DNA of 36,055 bases from Myxococcota bacterium (GTDB lineage: Bacteria; Myxococcota; Myxococcia; Myxococcales; Myxococcaceae). The position numbers and the translations under genes were made by a program. The DNA lies in NCBI GenBank assembly GCA_049322255.1, contig JBMORE010000015.1, positions 1-36,055 on the forward strand, given 5' to 3'. Under the pieces are notes generated by a model. It was not told where the DNA came from and ran no database searches. It saw only the letters and a program-made list of their open reading frames with translations. Positions 3 through 35,780 of the stretch are shown here, in pieces. The first letter of the stretch is position 1; each line of letters begins with the position of its first letter.

Positions 3-239
3 GTGGACTGGGCGGTGTACGAGGCCGCGCGCGACTTGGTGGAGGGCAAGCTCTCCGGGGGAGACATCGCCTTGGGCCTGGCTGAAGGCGCGGTGACCTA
101 CGCCGACGTCACCGTGGACTTTCCCGGCAAGACCGAGGCGCTCGCGAAGGTCGAGGCGCTCGAGAAGCGAATCATCGCCAAAGAAATCTCCGTTCCTTCC
201 AACCCGGCGGCGCTCGAAGCATTCGAGTTCTCGCCCTGA
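3..239 (+). CDS. BMP-family (basic membrane lipoprotein) ABC transporter substrate-binding protein, C-terminal part (5' truncated by window)
   Basis: Ends ...LGLAEGAVTY...KRIIAKEISVP, typical of the BMP/PnrA C-terminus; directly precedes a CUT2-type ATPase and two permeases. Confidence 0.8.
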   Translation: MDWAVYEAARDLVEGKLSGGDIALGLAEGAVTYADVTVDFPGKTEALAKVEALEKRIIAKEISVPSNPAALEAFEFSP

Positions 240-1741
240 TCTCCCTCTCCCACATCTCCAAGCGCTTCGGCGGTGTGGTCGCGCTCGACGACGTCTGCCT
301 CGACCTCCACCCCGGCGAGCGGTTGGCGCTGGTGGGTGAGAACGGCGCCGGCAAGTCGTCGCTGATGAATGTGCTCTACGGCCTCTATCAGCCGGACGCG
401 GGTGAGCTCTTCTTCGACGGTATGCCAGTGCGCCTTCGCAGCCCACGCGATGCGATCGCCCGCGGAGTGGGAATGGTGCACCAGCACTTCATGCTCGTAC
501 CCACGCTCTCCGTGGCGGAGAACGTGGTGCTGGGCATGGAGCCCACCCGACGCGGCCTTTTCGACCTCGACGCGGCGAACGCGCAAGTCGAAAAGACCTG
601 CCGGCGCTTCGGCTTCCGGCTCGATCCGCGCGCGAAGGTGGAGTCGCTCACCGTGGGCTCGCAGCAGAAGGTGGAGATCGTCAAGGCGCTGCACCGGGGA
701 GCGAAGACGCTCATCCTCGACGAGCCGACGGCGGTGCTCACGCCGCAGGAGGCCGACGAGCTCTTCGCCGTCACCCGTGAGCTCTCCGCCACCGGGCACA
801 CCGTGGTCTTCATCACCCACAAGCTCAAGGAGGTGCTCTCGGTCGCCACCCGCATCGCTGTGATGCGCCGCGGAAAGAGGGTGGGAGAAAGACAGCCCAC
901 CCAGGTGTCTGCCGAAGCCCTCGCAGAGCTGATGGTGGGTGACAGCGGCCCCCTCTCCCCCTGGGAGAGGGCGGGGGTGAGGGGCGTCAGTACACCTGGT
1001 ACCCCTGTCCTTTCCTTGGAAGAGCTTTCGAGCGCCCCGCTTCAGCAGATCTCGCTCGAGGTCCACTCAGGCGAAATCGTCGGCATCGCCGGTGTCGACG
1101 GCAACGGGCAGCGCGAGCTCGCCGAGGTGGTGACCGGCCTGCGTCCCTGGACGAGCGGGCGGCTGACGCTCTCGGGCGAAGCGCTCTCGTCGCTGACTCC
1201 GGGCGAGGCGCGGCGGCGCGGGGTGGCCCACGTCCCCGAGGATCGGCTCTTGCGCGCGGTGGTGGGCGCGATGACGGTGGAGGAGAATTTTTCCCTCGGC
1301 CGGCAAGCTTCGCCGCCGTTCGCCCGCCACGGGCTCATCGATTTTCCCTCCCGCCGTGCCCGCGCGCAGGCGTTGATCGCCGACTATGACATCCGCCCGG
1401 CCAACCCGGGCGCGCAGCTCAAGGATCTCTCCGGCGGCAACCAGCAGAAGGTGGTGGTGGCGCGCGAGCTCGACACCCAGCCGCGGTTGTTGGTGGTGGT
1501 GCAGCCCACCCGCGGGCTGGACATCGCGGCGGTGGCGCAAGTGCACGCGAGGCTGCGTGAGGCGCGGCACCGAGGCACCGCGGTGCTGCTCGTCTCCCTG
1601 GACCTCGAGGAGGTCTTCGCCCTCTGCGACCGCGTCTACGTCCTCTATGACGGGCGCGCCTCGAGTCCCTTGTCCCGCGCCGAGCTCGACGAGCGCAAAG
1701 TGGGCCGCATGATGCTCGGCACCGAGGCCACCCATGGTTGA
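236..1741 (+). CDS. Nucleoside/sugar ABC transporter ATP-binding protein (two fused ABC domains, CUT2 type)
   Basis: Walker A GENGAGKS, MVHQHFML, ILDEPT, second signature LSGGNQQK, QPTRGLD. The conserved N-terminus ISLSHISKRFGGVVALD extends upstream of the ORF-track start (275) to a CTG at 236 overlapping the upstream TGA. Confidence 0.92.
   Translation: MISLSHISKRFGGVVALDDVCLDLHPGERLALVGENGAGKSSLMNVLYGLYQPDAGELFFDGMPVRLRSPRDAIARGVGMVHQHFMLVPTLSVAENVVLGMEPTRRGLFDLDAANAQVEKTCRRFGFRLDPRAKVESLTVGSQQKVEIVKALHRGAKTLILDEPTAVLTPQEADELFAVTRELSATGHTVVFITHKLKEVLSVATRIAVMRRGKRVGERQPTQVSAEALAELMVGDSGPLSPWERAGVRGVSTPGTPVLSLEELSSAPLQQISLEVHSGEIVGIAGVDGNGQRELAEVVTGLRPWTSGRLTLSGEALSSLTPGEARRRGVAHVPEDRLLRAVVGAMTVEENFSLGRQASPPFARHGLIDFPSRRARAQALIADYDIRPANPGAQLKDLSGGNQQKVVVARELDTQPRLLVVVQPTRGLDIAAVAQVHARLREARHRGTAVLLVSLDLEEVFALCDRVYVLYDGRASSPLSRAELDERKVGRMMLGTEATHG
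951..985 (+). repeat. REP-like palindromic element in frame inside the ABC ATPase gene
   Basis: CCCTCTCCCCCTGGGAGAGGGCGGGGGTGAGGGGC matches the intergenic copy at 17296-17330 at 33/35 nt; translated as (P)LSPWERAGVRG in the inter-domain linker. Confidence 0.8.
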
Positions 1742-2912
1742 GCCGGCCGTCGCGACCACGCCTGCCAGCGCCCCGCCTCCGCCCCGCCCGGCGCCGGCCG
1801 CCGACACTTGTCCGCCGCGCCGAGGTCTCTTCCACCCCGCGCTCCCCTCCCTTCTCTCCGTCAGTCTCTCGCTCCTTTTGTGCTTCGTCGCCATCGCCCT
1901 CACCCGCGGAAGCTTCTTCACCGCCCTCGAGGCCTACGCGGCGATGCTCTGGGGTGGGCTGGGCGACTTTCCGCGCCTGTTCGCTGGAGCTGGCGCCGAC
2001 GTCCTCTTCCGTCCCTGGGGAGAGTCGGCGGCCAAGGCGTCCATCCTCGCCCTCACCGGGCTTTCGGTGGCGGTGGCCTTCCAGGTGGGGCTGTTCAACA
2101 TCGGTGCCCAGGGGCAAATGACGGTGGGTGCCCTCGCCGCGGCGGTGGTGGGCGCGCAGCTGTCCTGGCCCGCTCCTCTGCATGTGGGAGCGTGCCTCGC
2201 CGCCGCCGGCGTGGCCGGAGCCCTCTGGGGCCTTCTTCCCGCCACGCTCAAGCTACGGCGCGGGGTGCACGAGGTCATCTCCACCATCATGCTCAACTGG
2301 ATCGCCGTCAGCCTGGTGGAGAACTGGCTGGTGGTGGGCCCTTTGCGCGCCACCGCCGGCCAAGACCTCTCCCTCGCCGGCACCGCGCAGATCCACGACA
2401 GCGCGCAATTGCCGCGCCTTCTGGGCGACGTTTCCAGGCTGCACGGTGGTTTCCTCCTCGCCCTCCTCCTGGCCGTCGTCGTCTGGTTCTGGCTCACCCG
2501 CACCCGCTTGGGCTTCGAGACACGCGCGGTGGGCCTGGGCCGCGAAGCCGCCAGGACCGCGGGCATGCCGACGTCGGCGAGGGTGCTGCAAGCGATGGCC
2601 GTCGCCGGAGCCCTCGCCGGCTTGGCGGGGGCGGTGTTGGTGCTGGGCACCGAATTCAAGTACCCGGCCACCCTCGGAGCGCCCTACGGCTTCGACGGCA
2701 TCGCCATCGCCCTCATCGGGCAGACCCACCCCTTGGGCGTCTTTCTCACCGCCTGCTTCTTCGGCGTCTTGCGCGCCGGCGGCACGCGCATGCAGCTGTT
2801 CGGCGTACACAAGAGCTTCCCCGAGCTCATCCAAGGGCTGGCCCTGCTCTTCATCGCCGGGCGGATGATTTGGACCTGGCTCCTCACCCGGAAAAAGGCA
2901 CGCCGTGCTTGA
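1734..2912 (+). CDS. Nucleoside ABC transporter permease 1
   Basis: Multi-TM; GLFNIGAQGQ, GVHEVISTIMLNW and YGFDGIAIAL motifs of the BPD_transp_2 nucleoside permeases. Confidence 0.92.
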   Translation: MVEPAVATTPASAPPPPRPAPAADTCPPRRGLFHPALPSLLSVSLSLLLCFVAIALTRGSFFTALEAYAAMLWGGLGDFPRLFAGAGADVLFRPWGESAAKASILALTGLSVAVAFQVGLFNIGAQGQMTVGALAAAVVGAQLSWPAPLHVGACLAAAGVAGALWGLLPATLKLRRGVHEVISTIMLNWIAVSLVENWLVVGPLRATAGQDLSLAGTAQIHDSAQLPRLLGDVSRLHGGFLLALLLAVVVWFWLTRTRLGFETRAVGLGREAARTAGMPTSARVLQAMAVAGALAGLAGAVLVLGTEFKYPATLGAPYGFDGIAIALIGQTHPLGVFLTACFFGVLRAGGTRMQLFGVHKSFPELIQGLALLFIAGRMIWTWLLTRKKARRA

Positions 2913-3834
2913 GCTCATCGAGGCGCTGGTTTTCTCCACCTTCGAGTACGCCCCCGCGCTGGTGTTCGCGGCGTTGGGCGCCGTCCTCTCCGAGCGCGCG
3001 GGGGTCATCAACGTGGGGGTGGAAGGCATGATGCGCGCCGGCGCCTTCGTCGCCGCCGTGGCCGCCTTGGGTCTGCCCACTCCCTTGGGCGTGCTCGCCG
3101 GCATGCTCGCCGGCGCCGCCCTGGCCGCGGTGCACGCTTACCTGTGCATTCGCTGGAAAAGCGAACAGGTCGTCTCCGGCATGGCCATCAACCTGGTGGC
3201 GCTCGCCGCCGGCACCTTCCTCCTCGAGGTGCTCTTTTCGCCCACCGGCACGCCCTCCATCCCCCAGCTGTCTCGCTGGAGCTTGGGGCCCATCGCCCAG
3301 GTGCCCCTTTTGCGCGCGGCCGCGGGGCACTCGGCGCTCAGCTACCTCGCGCTCGTGCTTCCCTTCCTCTTCCATCTCGTCTTGTGGCGCACCCCGGTGG
3401 GCCTGCGCATTCGCGCAGTGGGAGAGAAGCCGGCGGCGGCGGCGACGCTGGGGGTGGGGGTGGCTCGCCTACGCTACGCCTGCGTCTTGGGCAGCGGCCT
3501 TCTTTCCGGCCTGGGAGGGGCGGCGCTCTCCACCTCTACCCTCGACCGTTTCGAGCACCACATGCCCGCCGGGTTGGGCTTCATGGCGGTGGCGGCGATG
3601 GTCTTCGGCCGCTGGACGCCCCTGGGCGCGTTCGGCGCGGCGGCCTTCTTCGCCTTCGGCAACGCCCTGCGCATCGGGCTCGCCTCTTCGGCCCCCGTGG
3701 TGCTGGAGGTCCTTCCCCAGGGGTTTCTGCTCGCCCTCCCCTACGCCCTCACCCTGCTCCTGCTCACCCTGTGGGGCAAACGCAGCGCGGCACCAGCGGC
3801 CTTGGGAGCTCCGTACGATCCAGAAACCCGTTAG
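2905..3834 (+). CDS. Nucleoside ABC transporter permease 2
   Basis: SERAGVINVGVEGMM, GLRIRAVGE, AGLGFMAVAAMVFGRW, LPY and the C-terminal APAALGAPY motif. Confidence 0.92.
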   Translation: MLELIEALVFSTFEYAPALVFAALGAVLSERAGVINVGVEGMMRAGAFVAAVAALGLPTPLGVLAGMLAGAALAAVHAYLCIRWKSEQVVSGMAINLVALAAGTFLLEVLFSPTGTPSIPQLSRWSLGPIAQVPLLRAAAGHSALSYLALVLPFLFHLVLWRTPVGLRIRAVGEKPAAAATLGVGVARLRYACVLGSGLLSGLGGAALSTSTLDRFEHHMPAGLGFMAVAAMVFGRWTPLGAFGAAAFFAFGNALRIGLASSAPVVLEVLPQGFLLALPYALTLLLLTLWGKRSAAPAALGAPYDPETR

Positions 3835-3858
3835 CAGGGTATCGTTCGAGTCGCGAAC

Positions 3859-5187
3859 GTGACCCTCCCTCCCCAACGCCCGGGTCAGGCCGAGCTCCTT
3901 CCCCGGTACCTCTTGATCGCTCCCCTCATCGCGGGCAAGCGGGTGCTCGAGATGGGCGCCGTCGCCACCACGGCCGGGCTGACCGCTCACTTCCTTTCGC
4001 TGCGGGGTGCCAAGCACGTGCTCGCGCTCGACCCTGACTCTGACGCGATTTTTCGCGCCTCGAAGACGGTCGGCAGCCCCACGGTGCAGTTTCGCGTCGA
4101 CAACGTCTCCCTCGTCGAGCCGGGCACCTTCGATTTCGCGCTGGTCGCCGACCTCACCTCCCTCGACGAGCCGATGGTTCTGGCCCTGCGCCGCGCCCTC
4201 ACCAAGTCAGGCCGCCTTTTGGGAGGCATTCCCCACGCCAAGGGCATCGGCCGTCCCTTGCGCGCGGGCGCCTACCCCACCCGCGGGCGCATGGCGACGT
4301 TGTTCTCCCCTCACTTCGCCAGCGTGCAGGTGCTCAAACAGCGGCCGGTGGCCGGCTACCAGCTCTCCCTGGATGACGGCAGCACACCCACTCTCGATGA
4401 CAGCCTGGCTGGCACCATCGAGCCGGCGTATTTCGTGCTCATCGCCGGGCCCACCCCCGTACAACTCGCCGCGCGCACCTGGGTACAGCTGTCTTCCGAG
4501 GTTCTCGACCGCGGCGACACCTCGACCGCCGCCGTGGACCCCAAGCTTCGACGACTCGAAGCCGAGCTGCAGGAAGCGCGCATCGCCCTGGTCGACCGCC
4601 AAGCCGAGGTGCACGAGCTGCAGCGCAAGCTGGCCTGGACCGAGCAGCCCACCCGCGTCGAGAACAGCCGCGGCAATGACAAGGAGCTCGCCGGTCTGCT
4701 TCAGAGCACCCACGAGCAGCTGCGGCGGGCTGCCGACGAGCTCAAGGCTTCACGCGCTGCCGAGGCCAAAGCCAGAAACGAGGCCGCCGCCTTGCGGGTG
4801 CAGCTCGAGCACCAGAACGCCGCCGCGGCCAACGCGCTCGACAAGGAGCGCGCCCGCCGCAAGGAGCTCGAGGCGTTGGTGACCGCCTTGGAGAACGACC
4901 GTGCGCGCTCTGGGGAGCTGACCAAAGCGCTGGAGGCGGAACGGTCGAAGTCCTCCCAGCTCAGCTCGGCGCTCAACGCCGACCGTGCCCGGCTCAAGGT
5001 GATGGAAGCCGCCAAGAGCGCCGCCTCCTCCGCGATGGAGAAGACCGCCGCCAAAGTCAAGGAGCTCGAATCGCAGCTCGAGCAAGAGCGCAACGAAGCG
5101 AAAGGCCGCCGTGCAGGCCTGGAGCTACAGCTGTCCCACCTCACCACCCAACTCGACGAATTGCGCGCCGCCCTCGCCGAGAAGTAA
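3859..5187 (+). CDS. Class I SAM methyltransferase-like domain fused to a long C-terminal coiled coil
   Basis: GKRVLEMG...GAKHVLALD...FDFALV...LRRALTKSGRL is a degenerate Rossmann MTase pattern; about the last 210 aa are Ala/Glu/Leu/Arg heptad-rich. Confidence 0.65.
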   Translation: MTLPPQRPGQAELLPRYLLIAPLIAGKRVLEMGAVATTAGLTAHFLSLRGAKHVLALDPDSDAIFRASKTVGSPTVQFRVDNVSLVEPGTFDFALVADLTSLDEPMVLALRRALTKSGRLLGGIPHAKGIGRPLRAGAYPTRGRMATLFSPHFASVQVLKQRPVAGYQLSLDDGSTPTLDDSLAGTIEPAYFVLIAGPTPVQLAARTWVQLSSEVLDRGDTSTAAVDPKLRRLEAELQEARIALVDRQAEVHELQRKLAWTEQPTRVENSRGNDKELAGLLQSTHEQLRRAADELKASRAAEAKARNEAAALRVQLEHQNAAAANALDKERARRKELEALVTALENDRARSGELTKALEAERSKSSQLSSALNADRARLKVMEAAKSAASSAMEKTAAKVKELESQLEQERNEAKGRRAGLELQLSHLTTQLDELRAALAEK

Positions 5188-5196
5188 TTTGCCTCC

Positions 5197-5967
5197 ATGG
5201 CCATCGACAAGCTCAAACCCCGGCCGGTCATTCCCCAAACCGCGAGGGTGAAAGACGTCGCGCTGCCTACCCCGCCGCCGAACGCGACCTCCATCGTCCC
5301 CGACATCTTCGCCAAGAAAGTGCAGCCGGCGAATTTGCAGCTCGATGGCGCGCGTGCCCCCGACGCGGGTCGCAAGGAGCTGGCGCACCTGCAAGCCAGC
5401 CGCCCCCTGTGGGGCGTGTCGGACAACGCCGAGCTGACTGCGGTGGGCAACCCCTTCCTCATCATTCCCTTTTCCACCGCGGCCGAGGTGGCGGCGACGG
5501 TGTTCAAGCGCGACTTGAGCGCGGGCTACGACCTGGCCGTGCCGCAAAACGCGGTCGCCTTGGGCGAAGACCGGGTGTTCGTCGCTTCCTTACGCCGCCG
5601 CGACGGGGCCGAGGCGCCGCAGTCGCGCGCGCTTCTGGTCGACTCGCAAGGCGCGCTGCGGGGGGCGGAGTGCCGCACCCCCGAAGAGGTGAAAGACCTC
5701 TTCACCCGCGCCGGCTCTCTGGGCGACCGCGTGAAGATCGACGCCTTCGGAGCCGACACCTTTCAAAAAAGCGGCGAGCGCATTTCGTTGGTGAGCGTCA
5801 AGCGGGGCAAGGAGAGCGCTTTCGAAGCGACCCTCTCTTTGGGCAAACAAGAGGCCACCGTTCGTCTCAACAACTTCGGGCTCGCGGTGCCGCCGGCGAA
5901 GAACCCCTCCGCGCTGGACATCGTGCTCGCTCGTCTCCGGCTCGACGCGTTCGAGGCCGTGGCTTAA
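5197..5967 (+). CDS. Hypothetical protein
   Basis: 256-aa ORF with GC-rich third positions, packed between neighbours (9 and 10 bp gaps); no family recognised. Confidence 0.7.
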   Translation: MAIDKLKPRPVIPQTARVKDVALPTPPPNATSIVPDIFAKKVQPANLQLDGARAPDAGRKELAHLQASRPLWGVSDNAELTAVGNPFLIIPFSTAAEVAATVFKRDLSAGYDLAVPQNAVALGEDRVFVASLRRRDGAEAPQSRALLVDSQGALRGAECRTPEEVKDLFTRAGSLGDRVKIDAFGADTFQKSGERISLVSVKRGKESAFEATLSLGKQEATVRLNNFGLAVPPAKNPSALDIVLARLRLDAFEAVA

Positions 5968-5977
5968 GAAGCGCGCG

Positions 5978-7315
5978 ATGGCGACGGTCTGGTTGGTCGA
6001 CGTCGACGAGCCGGTGCTGGCGGCGAGCTTGACGGCAGCGGGACACGTGGTGTCGCGCCACTCGGTCAAGAGCGCTCTTTCCGACACCGGCCCCAGCGCC
6101 GACGTCGCCTTGGTGCGGCCCAACGGCCAGCCACCTCCTCTCTTGGCGCGCCAGCTGGCCGCTCACGCGCCCGCCACCGCATGGGTGATGGTGCTCGGCG
6201 AGGTCACCGCGCAGAAGGCAGGCGCCATTCTCGACGCGGGCGCGGCCGACGTGTGCCTCGAGCCGCTTTCGCCGCCCACGGTGGAAGTGCAAATCGCCCG
6301 CCTGGTGCGCGCACAAAAGAGCCGCGCCCGCTTGGGCCACTGGGAGGAAAGCGCCGCCCGCGAAGGGCAGCTCACCGAGGTGATTGGCCAGTCGGCGCCG
6401 ATGCGGGAGCTGCTCGAGCGCGTCTCCCGGGTGTCGCGGCGCAGCGCCCAGGGGCCGCCGCTCTCGGTGATGCTCACCGGCGAGACCGGCACCGGCAAGG
6501 GGCTGTTGGCGCGGGTGCTGCACTACTCCAGCCGCCGCCGCGAGGGGCCTTTCGTGGAGCTCAACTGCGCGGCCCTCCCCGCCACCCTGCTCGAGGCGGA
6601 GCTGTTCGGCCACGAGCGCGGCGCTTTCACCGACGCCAAGACCGCGCGCATGGGCCTTTTGGAGGCCGCCGACGGGGGCACGCTCTTTCTCGACGAGGTG
6701 AGCTACCTCCCTCCCGAGGGACAGGCGAAGCTGCTCACCGTGCTGGAGACGCGCCGGCTGCGCCGCCTGGGCAGCTCGGTGGAGCGCCAGGTCGACGTGC
6801 AGATCGTCGCCGCCTCCAGCCACGACTTGAACCAGCGGGTGACGCAAGGACAGTTCAAACCCGAGCTGCTCCACCGGTTGACGGCACTGTGGTTCCAGCT
6901 CCCACCGTTGCGCGCGCGGGGCGACGACGCGGTGCTCCTGGCCGAGCGTTTCCTGACGCGCATCACCCAGAGCTACCAGTTGCCTCCCAAGCGGCTTTCC
7001 GACGAGGCGCGGGAGGCGATTCGCACCCATGCCTGGCCGGGCAACGTGCGTGAGCTGTACCACGCGCTCGAGCGGGCCGTGCTCTACGAGGAGCGCGCCG
7101 AGGTGGCGGCTTCCGACCTGGCGCTGCACCCGCAGCCTTTACCGGCGCCTGCGGAGGAGCTTCCGCCCGAAGGGCTGGCGGCGATCGAGCGGGCCGAGCG
7201 CGCCCTCATCGAGCGCGCCCTCGCCCAGGAGAAGGGCAATGTCTCGCGTGCCGCCGCGCTGCTCAAGGTGACCCGCGACGTCTTGCGCACGCGCATCGAG
7301 AAGTACGGGCTGTAG
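5978..7315 (+). CDS. Sigma-54-dependent enhancer-binding protein (degenerate receiver, AAA+, Fis HTH)
   Basis: GETGTGK, ELFGHERGAFTDA, LFLDEV, WPGNVREL; C-terminal GNVSRAAALLKVTRDVLRTRIEKYGL. Confidence 0.92.
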   Translation: MATVWLVDVDEPVLAASLTAAGHVVSRHSVKSALSDTGPSADVALVRPNGQPPPLLARQLAAHAPATAWVMVLGEVTAQKAGAILDAGAADVCLEPLSPPTVEVQIARLVRAQKSRARLGHWEESAAREGQLTEVIGQSAPMRELLERVSRVSRRSAQGPPLSVMLTGETGTGKGLLARVLHYSSRRREGPFVELNCAALPATLLEAELFGHERGAFTDAKTARMGLLEAADGGTLFLDEVSYLPPEGQAKLLTVLETRRLRRLGSSVERQVDVQIVAASSHDLNQRVTQGQFKPELLHRLTALWFQLPPLRARGDDAVLLAERFLTRITQSYQLPPKRLSDEAREAIRTHAWPGNVRELYHALERAVLYEERAEVAASDLALHPQPLPAPAEELPPEGLAAIERAERALIERALAQEKGNVSRAAALLKVTRDVLRTRIEKYGL

Positions 7316-7390
7316 GCCTTACGGCTTTACAAGCTCTTCGCGCCGGCACTAAAGGAGTCGGCTCTTCAATAGGGACACGGAGAGCAAAAC

Positions 7391-11823: not shown

Positions 11824-11854
11824 GGGTCAGCGCCTCTTTCTTTGGGTGCCAGAC

Positions 11855-14866: not shown

Positions 14867-15538
14867 TCACAACCGATAGGCGACGCCGAAGAGAACCTCG
14901 AGGGTGAAGCGGGCGTTGCCGGTAGTGAGAGTCGGCCCCATGCGAGTGTTGAGGGTGAGCGCCAGCTTCTGGTCGATGTAGTACTCGGCGCCCGCTCCCA
15001 CCAGGATGGGGAATTGGAAGCCGCCGGACGGACCGAACACCACGTACATCGGAAGCTCCAACCCCACGTTGACCAGAATCGCGCTGCTGGCAAAGACGCC
15101 CAGGCTGAGCGCCAGCGGCATCACCAGCCCCGCTTCGGTGCGCGAAGCGCCACGACCGGCAGAGAAGAAATAAAAAAAAGGCCCCGGCGCGAATTCCAGC
15201 CCCAGGTTGATGCGGTCGCGCTCCAGAAGCATCACCCGGAGCACGCCCTGCAGCTTGAGACCGGGGGCGACGGTGTCGACGCGGCCTTCGTAGCCGTAGT
15301 TGAGGTTGAATCGCCCGCCCACGTCGAGCTTGGGAGTCACCCCGTGTAACAGGCTCGCCGACAACCCCGGCCAGCCCAGCTCGGCGTGCACCACGGTGTT
15401 GCCCTGGTCCACCGTCTGGCCGCTCAGCACCGACCAACCTTGCCCGCGTCGGAAAGTCGTCGGCTCGGCCTCTTGCGCGCGCGCGCTTCCGCACCACAAG
15501 AGCGCCACGGCGAGGACCCATCCCACAGTCTGGTGCAT
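14867..15538 (-). CDS. Putative outer-membrane beta-barrel protein
   Basis: Signal peptide (ARA/Q), alternating amphipathic strands, C-terminal beta-signal-like FGVAYRL; AGGAGG RBS. Confidence 0.7.
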   Translation of the reverse strand: MHQTVGWVLAVALLWCGSARAQEAEPTTFRRGQGWSVLSGQTVDQGNTVVHAELGWPGLSASLLHGVTPKLDVGGRFNLNYGYEGRVDTVAPGLKLQGVLRVMLLERDRINLGLEFAPGPFFYFFSAGRGASRTEAGLVMPLALSLGVFASSAILVNVGLELPMYVVFGPSGGFQFPILVGAGAEYYIDQKLALTLNTRMGPTLTTGNARFTLEVLFGVAYRL

Positions 15539-15561
15539 CGTCCCTCCTGCAAAAGGAAAGG

Positions 15562-17280
15562 CTACGGCTGTCCCCGCTCCTTGGCCAGCGCGAGGAAGGC
15601 GTGCTCCAGCGCGGCCAAGCGCTCCGTTGCGCGGTGATGGGCAGCCGGCAGGGGCTCCTGCGCGAGGAGACGCTCTTTGAGCTCGAAGTAGTATTTGATT
15701 TTCGGCTCGGTGCCGCTGGGGCGCAGCGTCACCCGCCCGCCGTCCAAGACGTAGGCGATGACGTTCGATGGGGGCAGCCCGCGCGCGCCGGCCTGGTAGT
15801 CGAGCACCTCGCGTACGGTCATCTCGCCGATGCGCGAAGGGGGACGGACGCGAAAACCCTCCATGATGCCGCGGATGACCGCCTGCCCTGAGGCGCCGGG
15901 GAAGGTGAAGTTGGCCTGCTGGGCGACGAAGAGCCCGTGCCGGCGTTGAATCTCCTCCAGGTAACCGAAGACGGTGGTGCCGCGCGCGTGCGCCCAGGCG
16001 GCGAGGTCGGCGAACACCAAGGCGGCCCCCACCCCGTCTTTGTCACGCGCCACCGTGCCCACCGTGTAGCCCAGCGCCTCCTCATAGCCGAAGACGAAGG
16101 TGGCGCCCTCGCCGGCCTCACGCTCCAGGGCGCGGTTGGCGATCCATTTGAAGCCGGTAAGAGTCTCCTCGTAAAGCGCGCCCAGCTCGGCGGCGATCTC
16201 TCCCAGCTGTGCCGAGGAGACGATGGTGGTGATGACCAGCGGCTTGGGCGGGCGGGGCATTTTCTGGGTGAGCAGGTAGTGCCCGAGCAAGACACCCACC
16301 TCGTTGCCGGTGAGCGCGCGCAAGCGTCCGGCTCCATCACGCGCGAGCACCGCCAGCCGGTCGGCGTCGGGGTCGTTGGCGAGCACCAGCGGCGCCTTCA
16401 CCTTCTCGGCGAGGGCGAAGGCCAGATCCATGGCGCCCTTCTCCTCCGGGTTGGGGAAGCGCACCGTGGGAAAGTTGCCGTCGGGCTGGTGCTGCTCGGG
16501 AACTGGATGGACGCGAAACCCCGCCTCGCGCATCGCCGCGTCGACGAAGCGGCCTCCGACTCCGTGCATCGCGGTGTAGACCAGCTCGAGGTGGTGGGCG
16601 TCCTGGTGCACACGTAAGGCGAGGATGGCGTCGAGGTACGCGCGCTCCACCGCCGGTGGCACCTCCCGCCATAGCTTCTTCGTTCGCGCCTCGGCCTGGG
16701 GCACAAGCTTCACCTGGTCGGCCGGCTCCACCGCCTCGATGGCCGCAGCGATGCCCACATCGTGCGGGGGCACAATCTGCGCCCCGTTTCCCCAGTAGAC
16801 CTTGTAGCCGTTGTACTCGGGCGGATTGTGGCTGGCGGTCACCATCACCGCGGCGGCGGCGCCTAAGCGCAAGGTGGCGAAGGCGGTCACCGGAGTGGGA
16901 ACCAACTGGGGGAACACCCAGGCGGGAATGCCTTCGGCAGCGAGCACGCACGCGGTGTCCTCGGCGAATTCGGCGCTCATCCGGCGCCCGTCGCGGCCCA
17001 CCACCACGCCACGCGTCGCCACCTCGGGCACCTGACGCTTGAGGTATCGCGCCAGGCCGGCAGTCGTGCGGCGCACCACCGCGCGGTTCATGCGGTTGGA
17101 GCCAGCGCCCAGGACACCGCGCAGCCCGGCGGTGCCGAACTCCAGACTGCCGGTGAAACGGTCGGCCAGCTCGGCCTCGTCGTTTCGGGCGAGCAGCTTC
17201 TCCAGCTCGGCGGCGGTGACCGGGTCGGGGTCGCTCTTCTGCCAATTCTGAGCGCGGCGGCGAATCTCAGCGGGGTCCAT
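15562..17280 (-). CDS. Alpha-D-phosphohexomutase superfamily phospho-sugar mutase (PGM2/PMM type, possibly acting as phosphopentomutase)
   Basis: LEFGTAGLRG, catalytic TASHNP, metal loop DPDADR, GYEEALG, RPSGTEPKIKYY. Start set at ATG 17280 (GGAG RBS) because the upstream extension runs through a REP element. Confidence 0.93.
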   Translation of the reverse strand: MDPAEIRRRAQNWQKSDPDPVTAAELEKLLARNDEAELADRFTGSLEFGTAGLRGVLGAGSNRMNRAVVRRTTAGLARYLKRQVPEVATRGVVVGRDGRRMSAEFAEDTACVLAAEGIPAWVFPQLVPTPVTAFATLRLGAAAAVMVTASHNPPEYNGYKVYWGNGAQIVPPHDVGIAAAIEAVEPADQVKLVPQAEARTKKLWREVPPAVERAYLDAILALRVHQDAHHLELVYTAMHGVGGRFVDAAMREAGFRVHPVPEQHQPDGNFPTVRFPNPEEKGAMDLAFALAEKVKAPLVLANDPDADRLAVLARDGAGRLRALTGNEVGVLLGHYLLTQKMPRPPKPLVITTIVSSAQLGEIAAELGALYEETLTGFKWIANRALEREAGEGATFVFGYEEALGYTVGTVARDKDGVGAALVFADLAAWAHARGTTVFGYLEEIQRRHGLFVAQQANFTFPGASGQAVIRGIMEGFRVRPPSRIGEMTVREVLDYQAGARGLPPSNVIAYVLDGGRVTLRPSGTEPKIKYYFELKERLLAQEPLPAAHHRATERLAALEHAFLALAKERGQP

Positions 17281-17295
17281 GTTTGCTCCATGCAT

Positions 17296-17376
17296 CCCTC
17301 TCCCCCTGGGAGAGGGCAAGGGTGAGGGGCGGGGGTTGACGTTCCCTCACCCCACCCCTCTCCCACGGGGAGAGGG
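17296..17376. repeat. Inverted pair of REP-like palindromes (BIME-like)
   Basis: CCCTCTCCC-cct-GGGAGAGGG...GGGTGAGGGG at 17296-17330 and an inverted copy CCCTCACCCC-a-CCCCTCTCCC-acg-GGGAGAGGG at 17344-17376. Confidence 0.85.
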
Positions 17377-17380
17377 AGTT

Positions 17381-17773
17381 TTACTTGTACTCCGTCAGCT
17401 TCCTGCGGGTGGGTCCGCTTTTCGGCCCATCGCGGCGTGTCTGACAGTCGACGCACAGCTCGGCGTAGGGCATCGCCGTGAGCCGCCCGAACGCAATCTC
17501 CTCGCCGCACTCCAGGCACAGCCCGAGCTCTTCGGGCGTCTCGCGCAACCGGCCGATGGCGCGGTCGACCATCGCAACAAGCCGTGCGTCGTTTCGGTTC
17601 CGGTCGGAGGCGATCGCCTGCAGCATCTCGTTGAGCGGCTGCTCGTCCTCGTCGCCACCCACCTCGGCCTCGGAGGTGCGATTGGGGTCGAGCTTGCGCA
17701 AGGGTTTGCCTGACAGCCCACGGGCGAGCGCGAGCAAAAGCTTCTGAATCTTGGCGCGCTGCGCGGCGGTCAA
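17381..17773 (-). CDS. TraR/DksA C4-type zinc finger protein
   Basis: Helical hairpin followed by GLCLECGEEIAFGRLTAMPYAELCVDCQ. Confidence 0.88.
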   Translation of the reverse strand: MTAAQRAKIQKLLLALARGLSGKPLRKLDPNRTSEAEVGGDEDEQPLNEMLQAIASDRNRNDARLVAMVDRAIGRLRETPEELGLCLECGEEIAFGRLTAMPYAELCVDCQTRRDGPKSGPTRRKLTEYK

Positions 17774-17782
17774 CCCTCGACC

Positions 17783-18688
<906 letters not shown>

Positions 18689-18731
18689 GCGAAGGCGGTC
18701 TACCTCAAACCCGGGCTAATCTCCACGCGCG

Positions 18732-19784
18732 ATGACCCGTCTCACTGCTTGGTTCGCGCTCCTTCTCACCGCCGCCGCGCAAGGAGCGCCGCTCACCGTG
18801 CGCTTCTTCGACGTCGGCCAGGGCGACGCCGCGCTGGTGACCACCCCCTTGGGCAAGACGGTGCTCATCGACGGAGGGCCTCCCGACGCCGGGCCCCGCT
18901 TGACCTCCCGGGTGCGCGCGCTGACCCAAGGACCGCTCGACCTGGTGGTGCTCTCCCACGCACACTTGGATCATCTGGGCGGTCTCACCGACGTGCTTCG
19001 CGCCGTGGGAGCACGCCGCTACCTGGAGCCGGACTTCGACCACCCCAGCACCGCCTACTTGAGCTTCCTTCGCTTCCTGGGCACTTTGGAGGTGACCAAG
19101 CTTCCCACCGGCGATCCCACCCAGCCGCTGGTGCCCGTGCGCTACCCACTGGAGCCTGAGGTGGAGCTGACGCTTTTGTGGCCACGGGTGGATGGCGAGG
19201 GAAAACCGCTCGAGCCGTTCTTGGGAAACACGCGCTCCGACGTGAACGCCAACTCGGTGGTGGCGCGCCTGACCTACCGCAAGACCAGCTTCCTCTTCGT
19301 GGGCGACGCCGAGGCGGACACCGAGGCGCTCTTGGTGAAGAAGAACCTTCCGCTGGCCTCCACCGTGCTCAAGGTGGCGCACCACGGCAGCCGGCACTCC
19401 TCCACCGCCTCCTTCCTCGAGAAGGTGAAGCCCACCGCGGCGGTGATTTCCTGCGCGGCGAAGAACGACTACGGGCACCCCGCGGCGGAGACGCTCGTGC
19501 GCCTTTCGGCTGCGGGGGCGAAGGTGTATCGAACCGACCTGCACGGAGAGGTGACCGCCCTAAGCGACGGAGAGGTGGTGCGCCTGCGTACCGAGCGCGC
19601 CGGCGTGGTGCCAGCATCTCCCACGTCCACCCAGGGCCCCTACGTGGCGAGCAAGCGCTCGCAAGTGTTTCATCTGGCAAGCTGCGCGGCGGTGGCCACA
19701 ATCAAACCGCACAACCGCCTGGAGTTTTCCGAACGCACCGCGGCAGCCAAGGAGCGCCGGCCCGCGGGAGACTGCCGCCCATGA
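18732..19784 (+). CDS. Secreted ComEC/Rec2-like metallo-beta-lactamase-fold hydrolase with C-terminal Ada-like metal-binding domain
   Basis: Signal peptide; FDVGQGDA, LIDGG, SHAHLDHLGG, GDAE, LKVAHHGS, NDYGHP, YRTDLHG; C-terminal YVASKRSQVFH..SC...RRPAGDCRP. Confidence 0.9.
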   Translation: MTRLTAWFALLLTAAAQGAPLTVRFFDVGQGDAALVTTPLGKTVLIDGGPPDAGPRLTSRVRALTQGPLDLVVLSHAHLDHLGGLTDVLRAVGARRYLEPDFDHPSTAYLSFLRFLGTLEVTKLPTGDPTQPLVPVRYPLEPEVELTLLWPRVDGEGKPLEPFLGNTRSDVNANSVVARLTYRKTSFLFVGDAEADTEALLVKKNLPLASTVLKVAHHGSRHSSTASFLEKVKPTAAVISCAAKNDYGHPAAETLVRLSAAGAKVYRTDLHGEVTALSDGEVVRLRTERAGVVPASPTSTQGPYVASKRSQVFHLASCAAVATIKPHNRLEFSERTAAAKERRPAGDCRP

Positions 19785-20905
19785 CCTTGCTCACCTTTTG
19801 CGCGGCCGCTTGGCTTTCCCTCAGCTCCGCCTCCCCGTCGCTCACCGTGCTCGAGCCAGCGGGGAAAGACGCTCCCAAAGGCGACGGGAAGCTGCACCTG
19901 TATTTCTTCGACGTGGGCGAGGGCGACGCGTGCCTCTTGGTCTCTCCCACCGGCCGCACGGTGCTGGTCGATGCGGGACCACCGCAGGCCGGCTCGCACC
20001 TCGCCCACCGCCTCCCCGCGCTCACCCGGGGGCCCATCGATTTGGTCCTGCTCACCCACCCGCACGACGACCACTTTGGAGGCCTGGCCCAGGCCACCTC
20101 TGCCACCGGGGTGAGCCGCTTCGCCGACGTCGACATGCCCCAGGCGAGCGCGGCGCACTTGCGCGCGTTGCCGGCGAAAGCCGTGTCGCTCTCGCCGGAC
20201 TCCGATCGTCCGGCCGAGCCGGTGCGAGTCGCGCTCGGCGGGGGAGCGGAGCTCGTCGTGCTCTGGCCGCGCGCACCGCTGGAGGCGCCGCTCAAGGGCA
20301 ACCCCGAGCACAACTCGGTGGTGGCGCGGGTGAGCTTGGGAACGACCTCGGCGCTCTTGACCGGCGATGCGCGGGCGGAGACCGAGGGCTACCTCTTGAG
20401 CAAGCGGTTCGACCTGTCCGCCACGCTGCTCAAGGTGGCCGCGCACGGGCGTGACATCGCCACCACTCCCGCCTGGCTCGCCGCGGTGAAGCCGCAAGCG
20501 GCCATCCTCTCGGTGGGAGCGGGCAACGCGCTGGGCGCCCCTGCGAAGGCGGTGCTCGAGCGCCTGGAGGGTGCGGGCGCCCGCATCTTCCGTACCGACC
20601 TCGACGGAGAGATTCACGCGGTGAGCGACGGCAAGCGCTTCACCCTCACCACCGAGCGCCTGGCTGCGGGCGAGACTCCGGGCACCGCGCACCTCTTCCC
20701 CGCCAAGGCGGCCGCACGGCCTCCCAAGGCTTCTCCTAAGGTGCAGGAGCCGCCGGCGGCGTTCGTGGCGAGCAAGCACGGCAAGGTGTTTCACCTGCCC
20801 AGCTGCAAGGCCGCCCAGCGCATCGCTCCCCACAACCTCATCGTCTACCCGTCGCGCGAAGAGGCGGAGAAGTCGCGCCGCCCAGCGGAGGACTGCAAGC
20901 CTTAG
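19781..20905 (+). CDS. Second ComEC/Rec2-like MBL-fold paralog with partly degenerate metal ligands and an Ada-like C-terminal domain
   Basis: ATG at 19781 overlaps the upstream TGA; signal peptide; FDVGEGDA, THPHDDHFGG, LKVAAHG, FRTDLDG; FVASKHGKVFH.PSC...RRPAEDCKP. Confidence 0.88.
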   Translation: MTLLTFCAAAWLSLSSASPSLTVLEPAGKDAPKGDGKLHLYFFDVGEGDACLLVSPTGRTVLVDAGPPQAGSHLAHRLPALTRGPIDLVLLTHPHDDHFGGLAQATSATGVSRFADVDMPQASAAHLRALPAKAVSLSPDSDRPAEPVRVALGGGAELVVLWPRAPLEAPLKGNPEHNSVVARVSLGTTSALLTGDARAETEGYLLSKRFDLSATLLKVAAHGRDIATTPAWLAAVKPQAAILSVGAGNALGAPAKAVLERLEGAGARIFRTDLDGEIHAVSDGKRFTLTTERLAAGETPGTAHLFPAKAAARPPKASPKVQEPPAAFVASKHGKVFHLPSCKAAQRIAPHNLIVYPSREEAEKSRRPAEDCKP

Positions 20906-20908
20906 ACC

Positions 20909-21142
20909 ATGGCCCGCGCGACCATCGATCGCTTCGAAGGCGAGCTGGCAGTGCTCCTCGTCGACGGCGGCGAAGTGACCCGCCCGCGCTCCTCTCTTCC
21001 CGCCGAAGCGAAAGAAGGCGACGTGGTCGACCTGGACACCGGCCAAGTCGACACCGAGGCCACGGAGCGGCTGCTCGCCGATGTCCGCTCCGCACGCGCG
21101 CAGGCGTTTGGCAAGAAGGCCAAGCCGGGCAGCTTCGACTGA
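20909..21142 (+). CDS. DUF3006-family small protein
   Basis: IDRFEGELAVL...LPAEAKEGDVV...DTEATE. Confidence 0.85.
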   Translation: MARATIDRFEGELAVLLVDGGEVTRPRSSLPAEAKEGDVVDLDTGQVDTEATERLLADVRSARAQAFGKKAKPGSFD

Positions 21143-21144
21143 CT

Positions 21145-21657
21145 TCAGCCACCCTGGAAGAGCTTCTCTATGACCCGGATGGGCAAATAGAGGTGGAGCT
21201 CGTCATCCTCAAGGGTCTCGAAGCCGAAATGCGCGTAGAAACGCTTTGCTTCCTCATTCTTCGCAATGACTTCAACTGCGTGGATGCCCAGTTGCGCGGA
21301 AACCACCCAGGCGCGGCGGAGGGCGTCAATGAGCAGATGGGCACCAAGCCCCCGCCCTCGCACGCTTGAATCGACCGCCAATCTGCCTAGGTGAACGACC
21401 GGAACAGGGTACTGCGGCAGATGCTTGCGCTTCGATTCCGGAAGGTGCGGGAGCTCAATGATGCCGCTTCGAAGTGTGTAGTATCCCAACACCTGCTTCT
21501 CTCCGGGACGGGTAGCGACAAAGGTCCTCCCCAATCCACGTTGGTCATTCTGCCGCGCATATTTGCGAAGGTATTCGTCGAGCGCAGCCGTGCCACACGA
21601 GAAATCCGCTCGATCATGCGCCTTGGTGATGGCCTCGACACGCCACAGGTCAGCCAC
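21145..21657 (-). CDS. GNAT acetyltransferase toxin (TacT/AtaT type)
   Basis: HDRADFSCG..ALDEYL, VLGYYTL, PVVHLGRLAVD, RGRGLG, AKNEEAKRFY; directly downstream of a DUF1778 gene. Confidence 0.9.
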   Translation of the reverse strand: MADLWRVEAITKAHDRADFSCGTAALDEYLRKYARQNDQRGLGRTFVATRPGEKQVLGYYTLRSGIIELPHLPESKRKHLPQYPVPVVHLGRLAVDSSVRGRGLGAHLLIDALRRAWVVSAQLGIHAVEVIAKNEEAKRFYAHFGFETLEDDELHLYLPIRVIEKLFQGG

Positions 21658-21919
21658 GGCGTGCTTTGTACCGCTTGGCAGCAGCTTTCAGCGCCTCGAC
21701 AGGCTCGCGTTTCTCATCGAGCATGGCCAAGAAACGCGCTTGATCTCGTCGCGTCAGCACGGTCTTCGTGTGCTTTTCGATTGCCAGCTGCGCTCCCTCC
21801 GCGAGCAAGGCGCGCACGAACGCGGTCATTGCTTGGCCGGTGAGTGCCGCCGCCTGCTCGAGGAGCTCCTTGAGCTCCGGGGACAGGCGCATCTCCAATC
21901 GTTCTGTCTTGGTCGCCAT
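21650..21919 (-). CDS. DUF1778 ribbon-helix-helix antitoxin (TacA/AtaR type)
   Basis: MATKTERLEMRLSPELKELLEQAAALTGQ..TAFV...L...DQARFLAMLD...P.EALK.A. Confidence 0.9.
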   Translation of the reverse strand: MATKTERLEMRLSPELKELLEQAAALTGQAMTAFVRALLAEGAQLAIEKHTKTVLTRRDQARFLAMLDEKREPVEALKAAAKRYKARRG

Positions 21920-21928
21920 GGTGGAAAT

Positions 21929-21957
21929 ACCGTACGGCATTTTTACGTACAATTCAA
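21929..21957 (-). promoter_or_regulatory. Putative sigma-70 promoter and operator of the GNAT/DUF1778 TA module
   Basis: Minus strand reads TTGAAT-N17-TACGGT-N9-ATG; overlapping inverted repeat GTACG-N9-CGTAC at 21932-21950. Confidence 0.55.
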
Positions 21958-21958
21958 C

Positions 21959-23128
21959 TCACGCGGCACGGGCTTTGGGGAGCCAGAGCAGGAGAAAGCC
22001 GAAGGCCAGCGCCGAGAGCCCCGCTGCGGCGAGGAATGCCACTTTGCTCCCGCCGAGCATCCACAAACCACCGAAGAGCAGACCTGCCGCCAATGAGCCG
22101 ATGCCGGTGAGCGCGTGGTACAGGCCGAACGCCCGCCCCCGCGCCTCGAGAGGCGACAGCTCGACCAAGAGCGCCCGCTCGGCTCCTTCGGACATCGCAT
22201 GGTACAGCCCGTAGAAGGCGATGGCTCCCAAGGTGAAGGAAAGCGAGGGCGAGAGCGCCAGCGCCACGTAGCTGACTCCGTACAGCGCCCAGGCGAACCC
22301 CACCAGGCGCGCGCTCCCCAGGCGATCGGCGAGCGCTCCGGCGGGGAAGGAGACCGCCGCCTTCACCGCGTGCAACGAAAGCCAGGCCAAAGGGAGCAAC
22401 GCCGGCGAGGCGCCTTGCTCGGTCAGCCGCAAAAGCAAGAACGCATCGGTGGAGTTGGCCAGCGCAAACAGCGCCACCGGCCCCAGGTAGAACCCCAGAC
22501 GGCGCGGCACCGGGGCGAGCGGCTGGCCGGCCTTCGCGCGCGGGTGCTCGGGGGGCTCGCGGGAGAAGAAGATGGCCACCACCGCCAGCGCTCCGGGAAT
22601 CGCGGCGAGAAGAAACACCCTCTCCACCGAAAGCCCCCGAGCCACCAGCACGGCGGCGACGAGCGCCCCCAGCGCGGCGCCGGCGTGGTCCATCGCCCGG
22701 TTGAGCCCGAACGCCCGCGCGCGCATGCTCGGGTCGGCCCACCCGGCAATCATCACATCGCGCGGAGCCCCGCGCAGGCCCTTGCCCACCCGATCGATGC
22801 TGCGCACCAAGAGCGGTTGCCACCATGAGGTCACCAGCGCCATCAGCGGGCGGGCGAGCGAGGAGAGCGCGTAGCCGGAAAAGACCATCGGGCGCAGGCG
22901 GCGCGCTCGGTCCACCCAGTGACCCGCCCACCACTTGCAGCCCGCGGAGACCAAGTCGGCCAACCCTTCCATCGCTCCCAAAACCAGCGGGGCCGAAGCC
23001 ACCCGCGCAGCGAGGAACGCGGGCAGGAGGGGAAAAATCATCTCGCTGGAGACGTCGGTGAGAAGGCTCACCACCCCCAGCGCGAGGACCGAGGCCGGTA
23101 GCCGCCTGCGTTCAGCGCCTGGGCCCAA
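21959..23128 (-). CDS. MFS transporter
   Basis: About 12 hydrophobic segments; SLLTDVSSEMIFPLLP, DRVGKGLRGAPRD, GALADRLG. Confidence 0.9.
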   Translation of the reverse strand: MGPGAERRRLPASVLALGVVSLLTDVSSEMIFPLLPAFLAARVASAPLVLGAMEGLADLVSAGCKWWAGHWVDRARRLRPMVFSGYALSSLARPLMALVTSWWQPLLVRSIDRVGKGLRGAPRDVMIAGWADPSMRARAFGLNRAMDHAGAALGALVAAVLVARGLSVERVFLLAAIPGALAVVAIFFSREPPEHPRAKAGQPLAPVPRRLGFYLGPVALFALANSTDAFLLLRLTEQGASPALLPLAWLSLHAVKAAVSFPAGALADRLGSARLVGFAWALYGVSYVALALSPSLSFTLGAIAFYGLYHAMSEGAERALLVELSPLEARGRAFGLYHALTGIGSLAAGLLFGGLWMLGGSKVAFLAAAGLSALAFGFLLLWLPKARAA

Positions 23129-23774: not shown

Positions 23775-23776
23775 GG

Positions 23777-24043
23777 TCAGGCCACCTCGTCCACCACGCC
23801 GACGATGAGCGAGCGGATGGGGAGCTGTTTGTCCCCCAGCACCTGCCGCACCCCGTTGCCCTCGCGCATCACCAGCACCACGTCGCCCTTCCCCGCCGAC
23901 GAGGTGTGGTCGACGGCGAGGAAGCTCTTGCCCAGTGGCTCTTTTCTTTCGTCGAGCGGCTGCACCACCAAGAGCTTGCGCCCGTGGAAGGCGGGGTGCT
24001 TCTCGGTGGCGACCACCGTGCCCAACACGCGGCAGAGGTTCAC
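23777..24043 (-). CDS. EutN/CcmL bacterial microcompartment vertex protein (BMC-P)
   Basis: GTG start at 24043 overlapping the upstream TGA; MNLCRVLGTVVATEKH....GRKLLVVQP...AVD...AGKGDVVLV..EG...PI...IVGVVD. Confidence 0.92.
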   Translation of the reverse strand: MNLCRVLGTVVATEKHPAFHGRKLLVVQPLDERKEPLGKSFLAVDHTSSAGKGDVVLVMREGNGVRQVLGDKQLPIRSLIVGVVDEVA

Positions 24044-24303
24044 GCGTCCACCTCGTCGACCAGGCCGACGATCGCCGCGTCCACCGGCACGAACCAGGGG
24101 TCGCAGGCCAGCGCCGCCTCCCGGCTGCCCACCAGGTACACCAGGCTCTGAGGCGAGGCCGACACCGTGTCCACCGCCACCTCGGCGGAACCGACCGGCG
24201 CTTGCCGATGGTCGAGCGGCTGCACCAAAAGGAGGCGCTTGCCCTCGAGCCCCTCGTACTTGCGCTCGCACACCACGGTGCCGATGACCCTCCCTAGGTA
24301 CAT
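24040..24303 (-). CDS. EutN/CcmL bacterial microcompartment vertex protein (BMC-P)
   Basis: MYLGRVIGTVV..RK...LEGKRLLLVQP...VAVDTV...GSREA...PVDAAIVGLVD. Confidence 0.92.
   Translation of the reverse strand: MYLGRVIGTVVCERKYEGLEGKRLLLVQPLDHRQAPVGSAEVAVDTVSASPQSLVYLVGSREAALACDPWFVPVDAAIVGLVDEVDA

Positions 24304-35390: not shown

Positions 35391-35780
<390 letters not shown>

Follow-up and report, generated by a model that had tools for sequence, protein, structure and literature searches.

The window analysed here is a 36,055-bp stretch of DNA from a myxobacterium (contig C15 of a 4.85-Mb assembly of 196 contigs, 99.6 % complete) that carries deoC, the gene for a deoxyribose-phosphate aldolase (DERA), and two genes for vertex proteins (BMC-P) of a bacterial microcompartment (BMC). 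By gene content it is the satellite of a type I Haliangium ochraceum (HO) microcompartment, in all of the features tested except the second BMC-Tdp. From the genes, their order and their co-occurrence, we put at about 70 % the probability that the HO compartment works as a split sugar phosphate utilization (SPU) metabolosome with DeoC as its signature enzyme. In the window, the HO satellite is mixed with a nucleoside catabolism neighbourhood that is ordinary in the family, and gene order suggests that both ancestrally shared one operon. An earlier note on this DNA had read the 24 kb from a nucleoside importer to the BMC-P genes as one dispersed system. That reading was not sustained, as seven unrelated genes interrupt the span and the linkage of the importer, a mutase and two metallo-beta-lactamase-fold (MBL) genes to deoC does not depend on a shell. 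The core idea of the note is already in print as a conjecture, since Sutter et al. 2021 (PMC8217296) conjecture that an unlinked DeoC with an extension resembling an encapsulation peptide (EP) is cargo of the HO compartment, whose function would be the catabolism of nucleic acid.

Gene identities rest on Pfam and a check of the DNA of each named gene, with NCBIfam cut-offs applied for DeoC, the aldehyde dehydrogenase (AldDH), the MBLs and the mutase. The importer, mutase, deoC, MBL, BMC-P, class II aldolase and MFS genes named in the earlier note are each at the place given there. The BMC-P pair (PF03319, EutN_CcmL) is on the minus strand, with the first gene at 24040..24303 and the second, which has a GTG start, at 23777..24043. 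It is followed after 2 bp by a gene for a class II aldolase-fold protein (Aldolase_II, PF00596; 23112..23774, minus strand) and, coupled to that, one for an MFS transporter (PF07690; 21959..23128, minus strand). The deoC gene (17783..18688, minus strand) encodes a DeoC with an 82-residue leader, which scores 256.7 bits with TIGR00126 (cut-off 117.3) and is 76 % identical to the closest named DeoC, a Hyalangium sp. record. In this genome, 5.1 kb and six genes separate deoC from the satellite, and the main shell locus is on a different contig.

The remaining shell genes sought by the earlier note, BMC-H and BMC-T, are outside the window in a main locus (C54:157498-161121; the prefixes G, C, L, f and g denote our genomes, contigs, loci, families and genera). 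This locus consists of genes for BMC-T, BMC-H, BMC-P, a 67-aa ORF, an acylating AldDH and a further BMC-T. The AldDH reaches 661 bits with NF011927 (cut-off 403) and has an amphipathic, EP-like N-terminus, as the note had anticipated. In HO type I, the AldDH is phylogenetically nearest to those of SPU5/SPU7; by pairwise identity, the present enzyme is 71-78 % identical to the enzymes in the main loci of three relatives, and 49-60 % and 32-39 % to those of two sets of SPU-like loci. The BMC-H gene is single and stand-alone, and its best match in the Protein Data Bank (PDB) is HO-5815 (158.7 bits). The three BMC-P genes are split, with one on C54 and two in the window. Only two BMC-T genes were found in the genome, and a query with the extra BMC-T of a relative, G009, matched nothing; the set of two BMC-Tdp and one BMC-Ts of HO type I was thus not found complete, and G028 likewise shows no extra BMC-T. 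The 67-aa ORF (C54:158815-159018), located between the BMC-P and AldDH genes, belongs to no Pfam family, and G009 has a 93-aa ORF in the same place.

The nucleoside phosphorylase genes that had also been sought are on other contigs, pdp on C171, and pnp on C127 together with cda and a deaminase-like gene. The start of pdp is 182 bp from the end of C171 and the gene is oriented away from that end. As pdp divergently adjoins the importer's BMP gene in relatives, C171 probably joins position 1 of the window, which would place pdp just past the contig end. The reads of one DNA run do not extend past position 1.

The DeoC leader has three parts, an amphipathic helix (residues 2-30), a cysteine cluster (C47-x3-C51-x2-C54-x5-C60) and a GAxRI segment. 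In line with the proposal that this DeoC carries an EP-like leader, the helix is amphipathic, and the cysteine cluster tracks the presence of a shell. In an AlphaFold2 model, the helix has a pLDDT of 78-92, and its hydrophobic moment is 0.78 compared to 0.68 for the AldDH N-terminus; residues 43-60 fall under pLDDT 50, and for them the model says nothing on a metal site. The DeoC fold matches solved DERAs at 1.1 Å, the fold search returned DERAs only, and the catalytic residues D170, K232 and K261 are invariant in 60 aligned DeoCs.

Leaders were read in 77 genomes of the same order (37, plus 40 that were hand-picked and enriched for possible exceptions). Shell and cysteine cluster were found together in 42 and were both missing in 33, leaving one genome with cysteines and no shell (G010, 80 % complete) and one with a shell and no cysteines (G055). 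The cluster is thus present in 42/43 shell-bearing and 1/34 shell-less genomes. Outside the order, the spacing differs and the strict in-order pattern matched 0/30 leaders, and a looser rule (at least 3 Cys in the last 65 residues), chosen after the sequences had been seen, was used. Among the best 30 of 51 matches there, 22/24 shell-bearing and 0/6 shell-less genomes conformed to it. The 21 matches that were not read comprise four from shell-bearing genomes, which start at query residue 33-41, and 17 from shell-less genomes, which start at residue 66 or later. Pooled over both rules, the cluster was found in 64/67 shell-bearing and 1/40 shell-less genomes. In the family sample, the 29 shell-bearing genomes among 105 (a count that includes the unpublished G154) are exactly the 29 with the best DeoC matches, at 438 bits or more, and the next match scores 394. 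G058 and G045, which lack both shell and leader, are nested among shell-bearing genomes of f8, and cluster and shell are missing together in several separate lineages. The same leader architecture is found in DERAs inside SPU operons of other phyla. As an aside, the DeoC of L182 (G059:C76, shell-less) has a helix and then a Cys/Asp-rich stretch with eight Cys that differs from the usual cluster and is not scored by the strict rule. When an EP profile was made from 21 SPU leaders, 30/67 shell-bearing and 4/40 shell-less leaders passed it, and it was discarded as too weak.

BMC-P presence was sampled in three overlapping genome sets, in which 24/41, 53/201 and 68/201 genomes were positive. In a profile search, PF00936 was found in 0/17 genomes without BMC-P and in 3/3 controls. 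Gene order was mapped in 40 stretches and 80 named loci, then in 40 further stretches and in 20 more; kin, which are not independent of one another, are counted in these comparisons, and the order was read without a tested root. The recurring order in the family is FYDLN, GYF, the satellite (BMC-P, BMC-P, aldolase and sometimes MFS), a cassette of DUF3006, MBL2 and MBL1 on the opposite strand, deoC, a dksA-like gene, the mutase, an outer-membrane barrel, the importer and then divergent pdp. A BMC-P gene is no more than 10 kb from deoC in at least 33 of the 85 shell-bearing genomes with a listed deoC (at least 11/35 in the family, at least 3/22 elsewhere in the order and at least 19/28 outside it). 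These are lower bounds, many contigs being short. Without f12, which supplies nine of the 28 genomes outside the order, the figure is at least 25/76.

In 12 of the 85 genomes, from nine families, the genes for BMC-P, BMC-P, the class II aldolase and DeoC form an unbroken row, which pdp and pnp continue in four cases (G262, G237, G245 and G253). G263 has an order like that of the window, with an MBL gene between the aldolase gene and deoC, followed by pdp and pnp. Several named SPU loci (e.g. L131, L134, L147, L151 and L155) show deoC and then the order of the main locus and satellite of the present genome. The hallmark of SPU loci, a DERA gene inside the BMC locus, is seen in the satellites of the 12 relatives but not in the window. 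We infer that the satellite and deoC of the window descend from one operon, which was split by the MBL cassette, the MFS gene and a toxin-antitoxin pair. Of the conservation across the phylum that the earlier note had proposed to examine, what was recovered is the tie of deoC to the satellite of BMC-P and aldolase genes; membership of the importer, mutase and MBL genes in a BMC system was not supported.

Several further observations were made on these loci. A zinc-ribbon/GYF/AgmX-like gene (24319-25830, minus strand) ends 15 bp before the first BMC-P gene, and in many families such a gene stands ahead of the satellite or, in shell-less genomes, ahead of deoC; transcription may run on from it into the satellite. 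In L047 (G003:C120), from a 96 % complete genome in which no shell gene was found, the GYF gene, the aldolase gene and a deoC without leader directly adjoin one another and enclose no BMC-P gene, possibly as a relic of shell loss. L236 (G222:C100), from f12, is an SPU-like locus in a single operon, which includes a PduS-type gene and encodes a DeoC fusion of 495 aa. The N-terminal domain of this fusion has no Pfam match and a flavoprotein-like look, and pdp, pnp and cda adjoin on the other strand.

On the split SPU reading, nucleosides would be taken up by the BMP-type importer, Pdp and Pnp would release deoxyribose-1-P, and the PGM-family mutase would, on what is known of the family, convert this to deoxyribose-5-P in the cytosol. 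The leader would pack DeoC into the shell, where DeoC would cleave deoxyribose-5-P into glyceraldehyde 3-phosphate plus acetaldehyde, and the co-packed AldDH would yield acetyl-CoA and NADH. Membership of the organelle would be limited to DeoC, AldDH, the shell proteins and, possibly, the aldolase, and the supply genes would work with or without it.

A number of findings weigh against this reading. Among the matches listed, deoC was not seen near a BMC-P gene in 52 of the 85 genomes, and in the window the opposite-strand MBL operon between deoC and the satellite means that they cannot share a transcript. No PTAC was found in the genome. The RpiB gene that the earlier note had asked for is present, as a single 157-codon frame on C43, but is linked to neither BMC locus, and the single iron alcohol dehydrogenase gene is likewise unlinked, which leaves cofactor recycling unexplained. 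Some DERAs of SPU-like loci (L151, L158, L159 and L162) lack the cysteine cluster. The profile of SPU leaders scored the present DeoC 0.0 against a shuffle threshold of 2.2. A leader helix free of cysteines occurs in many shell-less genomes (e.g. G007, G012, G015, G017, G021, G026 and G041), so the helix is not an exclusive marker of a shell, and three shell-bearing genomes (G055, G239 and G247) have the helix only. In quick trees, strong branches gave three independent pairs with 77 rows and two with 103 rows (from which four long-branch rows had been dropped), too few for sign tests to reach significance, and the 20 shell-less rows from the family form one clade. No tree pair runs the wrong way.

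The genes that would supply deoxyribose were next to deoC irrespective of a shell. For these comparisons, 47 relatives in the family were called as shell-bearing or shell-less, and rows with too little flank were left out. The mutase flanks deoC in 22/24 shell-bearing and 22/22 shell-less genomes, the barrel is found behind deoC and the mutase in 21/23 and 22/22, a permease gene is within the mapped stretch in 10/25 and 19/22, and an MBL gene flanks deoC in 10/24 and 18/21, respectively. G002 keeps the MBL, mutase, importer, pdp and pnp genes, and neither deoC nor a shell was found in it. Linkage to deoC of the importer, mutase and MBLs, which had been proposed as parts of the BMC system, is thus at least as frequent in shell-less genomes.

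Of the importer placed at 3-3834 by the earlier note, the ATPase gene (PF00005, 275-1741) and two BPD_transp_2 permease genes (PF02653, 1734-2912 and 2905-3834) are complete, all on the plus strand. The gene for the BMP/PnrA-like substrate-binding lipoprotein (PF02608; 3..239, plus strand) is cut by the contig end. Only its C-terminal 78 codons, 57 % identical to residues 319-393 of the BMP of G017, are present, and the rest is not in the assembly. The BMP of a relative matches the structures of TmpC, BmpA and BmpD, which we take to be nucleoside-binding proteins, and nucleosides are probably the substrate. The PGM/PMM-family mutase (15562..17319, minus strand; PF02878/79/80/00408) reaches no NCBIfam cut-off, and its PDB matches are about equally weak to several mutases, phosphopentomutase included. 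A search with the TIGR01696 profile found no DeoB in this genome and the place of the mutase behind deoC is constant; the enzyme is a probable phosphopentomutase. Between deoC and the mutase gene is a gene for a DksA/TraR-type C4 zinc-finger protein (PF01258; 17381..17773, minus strand), as in many family members. Behind the mutase gene is one for an outer-membrane beta-barrel (14867..15538, minus strand; OMP_b-brl-like by ESM Atlas features and structure). This barrel is specific to Myxococcota, is present behind the mutase in 43/45 scorable family relatives and has a paralogue (47 %) on C170; it is a candidate channel for nucleosides or small solutes.

The MBL genes start 43 bp from deoC on the opposite strand, as the earlier note had described. 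MBL1 (Lactamase_B; 18732..19784, 350 aa) and its paralogue MBL2 (Lactamase_B; 19781..20905, 374 aa) share an ATGA overlap, and the third gene of the operon encodes a DUF3006 protein (PF11213; 20909..21142), a domain for which no literature was found. The three form a conserved cassette with one intact and one degenerate MBL. MBL1 has intact HxHxDH and KVAHHG motifs, and the metal motifs are kept in most relatives, whereas in MBL2 motif V is altered, with AH in place of HH. In many relatives, MBL2 has a lipoprotein-like N-terminus, read by eye. The closest solved structures to MBL1 are ComEC nuclease domains (9IC4 and 30BT; E 1e-34), and the Asn of motif III is shared, DVNANS aligning with DSNNNS of 9IC4. 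However, motif II is HAHLDH and HPHDDH in the two window proteins and T/SHPHLDH in 29/53 relative rows, and the aspartate of ComEC is absent. With TIGR00361, the two score 103 and 88 bits (cut-off 190), over the C-terminal part only, and neither has the competence membrane domain. The description of the proteins as ComEC-like therefore holds for the nearest structures and the motif III Asn, and fails for the motif II aspartate and the membrane domain. Their description as secreted is based on a signal-peptide-like N-terminus that was read by eye only. In a cell with two membranes, a signal peptide implies a periplasmic location unless otherwise shown, and a periplasmic phosphodiesterase feeding nucleoside uptake is a plausible role for MBL. 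A separate long ComEC-like frame is on C152. Each MBL also ends in a small Cys/His domain with a weak resemblance to Ada_Zn_binding (E 0.03). Assignment of either as a beta-lactamase was rejected, all such models being far below their cut-offs.

These data bear on a broader proposal, in which the two MBLs digest prey DNA outside the cell and the importer, mutase and MFS transporter feed the compartment as one co-regulated system. The ComEC relatives of MBL1 and the retained metal motifs fit such a role, as do the divergent placement of MBL1 beside deoC in f1, f3 and f10 and of the importer near deoC in f1 and f8. We consider it unlikely. The linkage of the MBL, importer and mutase genes is independent of the shell, motif II has the canonical form, and PMC8579336 names a phosphorylcholine esterase as the nearest homologue with a solved structure. 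The expected location is the periplasm, BMC-P was found in 0/18 genomes of g13 and 0/28 of g45, the most sampled large-genome genera, and the MFS gene is behind the aldolase gene in only 5/16 satellites from the same order, for which reason it was rejected as a fixed member of the satellite. The wider claim of prey-DNA digestion is not supported and adds little.

It is less likely still that the adjacency is inherited gene order, with DeoC cytosolic, the cysteine cluster serving another role and the HO compartment handling another aldehyde. The order from GYF to deoC is kept without a shell in G026, G033, G014, G030 and G036, and both the small number of independent contrasts and the persistence of the leader helix in shell-less genomes are in keeping with this. 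On the other hand, the leader architecture recurs in the SPU-operon DERAs of other phyla, the cluster and the shell are jointly absent in several separate lineages, and neither the main nor the satellite locus showed a further EP-bearing enzyme that forms an aldehyde.

The satellite aldolase keeps E78, H97 and H99, but has Asn161 where the five best solved aldolases have His. In FucA, this third His binds the metal. Asn is found at this position in 21/32 aligned copies, including all 16 from the order. Fifteen of these 16 end no more than 13 residues past the core, and the window copy has no C-terminal EP; most copies from outside the order have a longer tail, often with an EP-like helix, and several have both the helix and the His. 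G055 has a shell and AldDH and no satellite aldolase, G003 has the aldolase and no shell gene, and a second class II aldolase gene of the present genome is on C152. The satellite protein may have weakened or lost catalysis and act as a partner, or it may be active in the manner of DrdA. Least probable of the alternatives is that this aldolase is the signature enzyme (5-deoxyribulose-1-P to dihydroxyacetone phosphate and acetaldehyde, or methylpentulose phosphate to lactaldehyde) and DeoC a neighbour, given the Asn and short tails in the order and the uncoupling from the shell in G055 and G003, even though no other enzyme has been catalogued in HO satellites (PMC8217296), MtnA and MTAP-like genes are in the genome, and DrdA (6BTD; PMC6079011) is among its PDB matches.

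A more specific form of the split SPU reading is tentative, and as a whole doubtful. It joins an ancestral operon of BMC-P, BMC-P, aldolase, deoC, pdp and pnp to a four-Cys metal site in the leader that would be needed only inside the shell and lost with it, and to a degenerate aldolase (Asn for His, no EP) that might serve as a partner of DeoC by analogy with the inactive RpiB of SPU6.

The remaining features of the window fall outside the pathway. The seven genes at 3859-14748 have no pathway link, and were rejected as members; among the genomes mapped, only G020 has a similar insert. A GNAT toxin/TacA antitoxin pair (PF00583, PF08681; 21145..21952, minus strand) stands between the MBL operon and the MFS gene. 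GC content is 0.61 in 21001-22000 and about 0.68 around it, and the pair is an insertion behind the MFS gene, separate from the pathway. It is one of three toxin-antitoxin-type modules, the others being a PIN-domain gene (30490-30876) and a PemK/MazF gene that has a small ORF upstream of it (32055-32641). An RNase H gene is at 28361-28978; another RVT_3 match, which is partial (~31240-31518) and in a frame that also matches 3-dmu-9_3-mt, is located 2.3 kb downstream and is possibly a partial duplication. A class A bacterial RNase P RNA is at 35391-35784 on the plus strand (278.5 bits). A promoter scan found 0 sites against 0.6 expected, which is uninformative at 68 % GC.

Structural and engineering work on microcompartments uses the HO shell as its main model, and the native function of this shell has been called enigmatic (PMC8217296). 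With the present gene order and leader pattern, the conjecture on this function gains specific elements, with DeoC and its leader as proposed cargo, deoxyribose-5-P as proposed substrate and four cysteines of interest, and natural sister pairs with and without a shell are available for comparison. If the reading is correct, the DeoC leader would add a second native tag for loading HO shells. What is new relative to the searchable literature is the contiguous satellite-deoC-pdp-pnp order, the cysteine cluster that tracks the shell in HO-type DeoC and the substitution in the aldolase, though the per-locus diagrams in the supplement of PMC8217296 may already show deoC in some HO satellites.

Among known systems, ComEC shares with MBL1 the closest solved structures and the motif III Asn, and differs in that the window MBLs stand alone without a membrane domain and have HxHxDH in motif II, where ComEC has an aspartate in place of the second histidine (PMC8579336). 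Nothing on these genes was found in PMC9548883. Du et al. 2025 (PMC12747264, preprint) propose that Myxococcota SPU BMCs with a flavoprotein-DERA fusion use deoxyribose-5-P from scavenged DNA, and report EP-dependent loading of an archaeal Flav+DERA; the main text contains neither "Haliangium" nor "cysteine". Their systems are complete single operons from deep lineages with PduS-like and other enzymes, and resemble f12 and not the split HO locus of the window.

The nearest SPU types, SPU5 and SPU3, share with this genome a DERA with a 70-90 residue leader, an AldDH with an EP and a BMC-P triplet, and SPU5 also lacks RpiB, has a class II aldolase and would perform the same chemistry (PMC4207490, PMC11585597). 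In contrast, the DERA gene here is outside the main locus, RpiB, PTAC and PduS genes are not linked, and the genes are in at least two places. An SPU DERA with a leader of ~70 residues is active on deoxyribose-5-P after removal of the leader, and its RpiB partner is nearly inactive yet binds DERA (PMC11585597); the leader cysteines are not discussed in the main text of that paper. Four-cysteine extensions have been catalogued for other BMC proteins (PMC8217296).

The closest match is HO type I, which has one BMC-H, three BMC-P split 1+2, an AldDH with an N-terminal EP in the main locus, and a satellite of two BMC-P and a PF00596 aldolase, with Hyalangium listed as HO (PMC8217296). The present genome shares the single BMC-H, the 1+2 split of BMC-P, the AldDH with EP and the satellite aldolase. 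It differs in that the satellite BMC-T was not found and that deoC, which the supplement paragraph on HO does not name in the satellite (PMC8217296), is 5.1 kb away here but contiguous in 12 other genomes. This recurrent placement of deoC with the satellite, as read from gene order, supports the published conjecture that the HO organelle breaks down deoxyribose.

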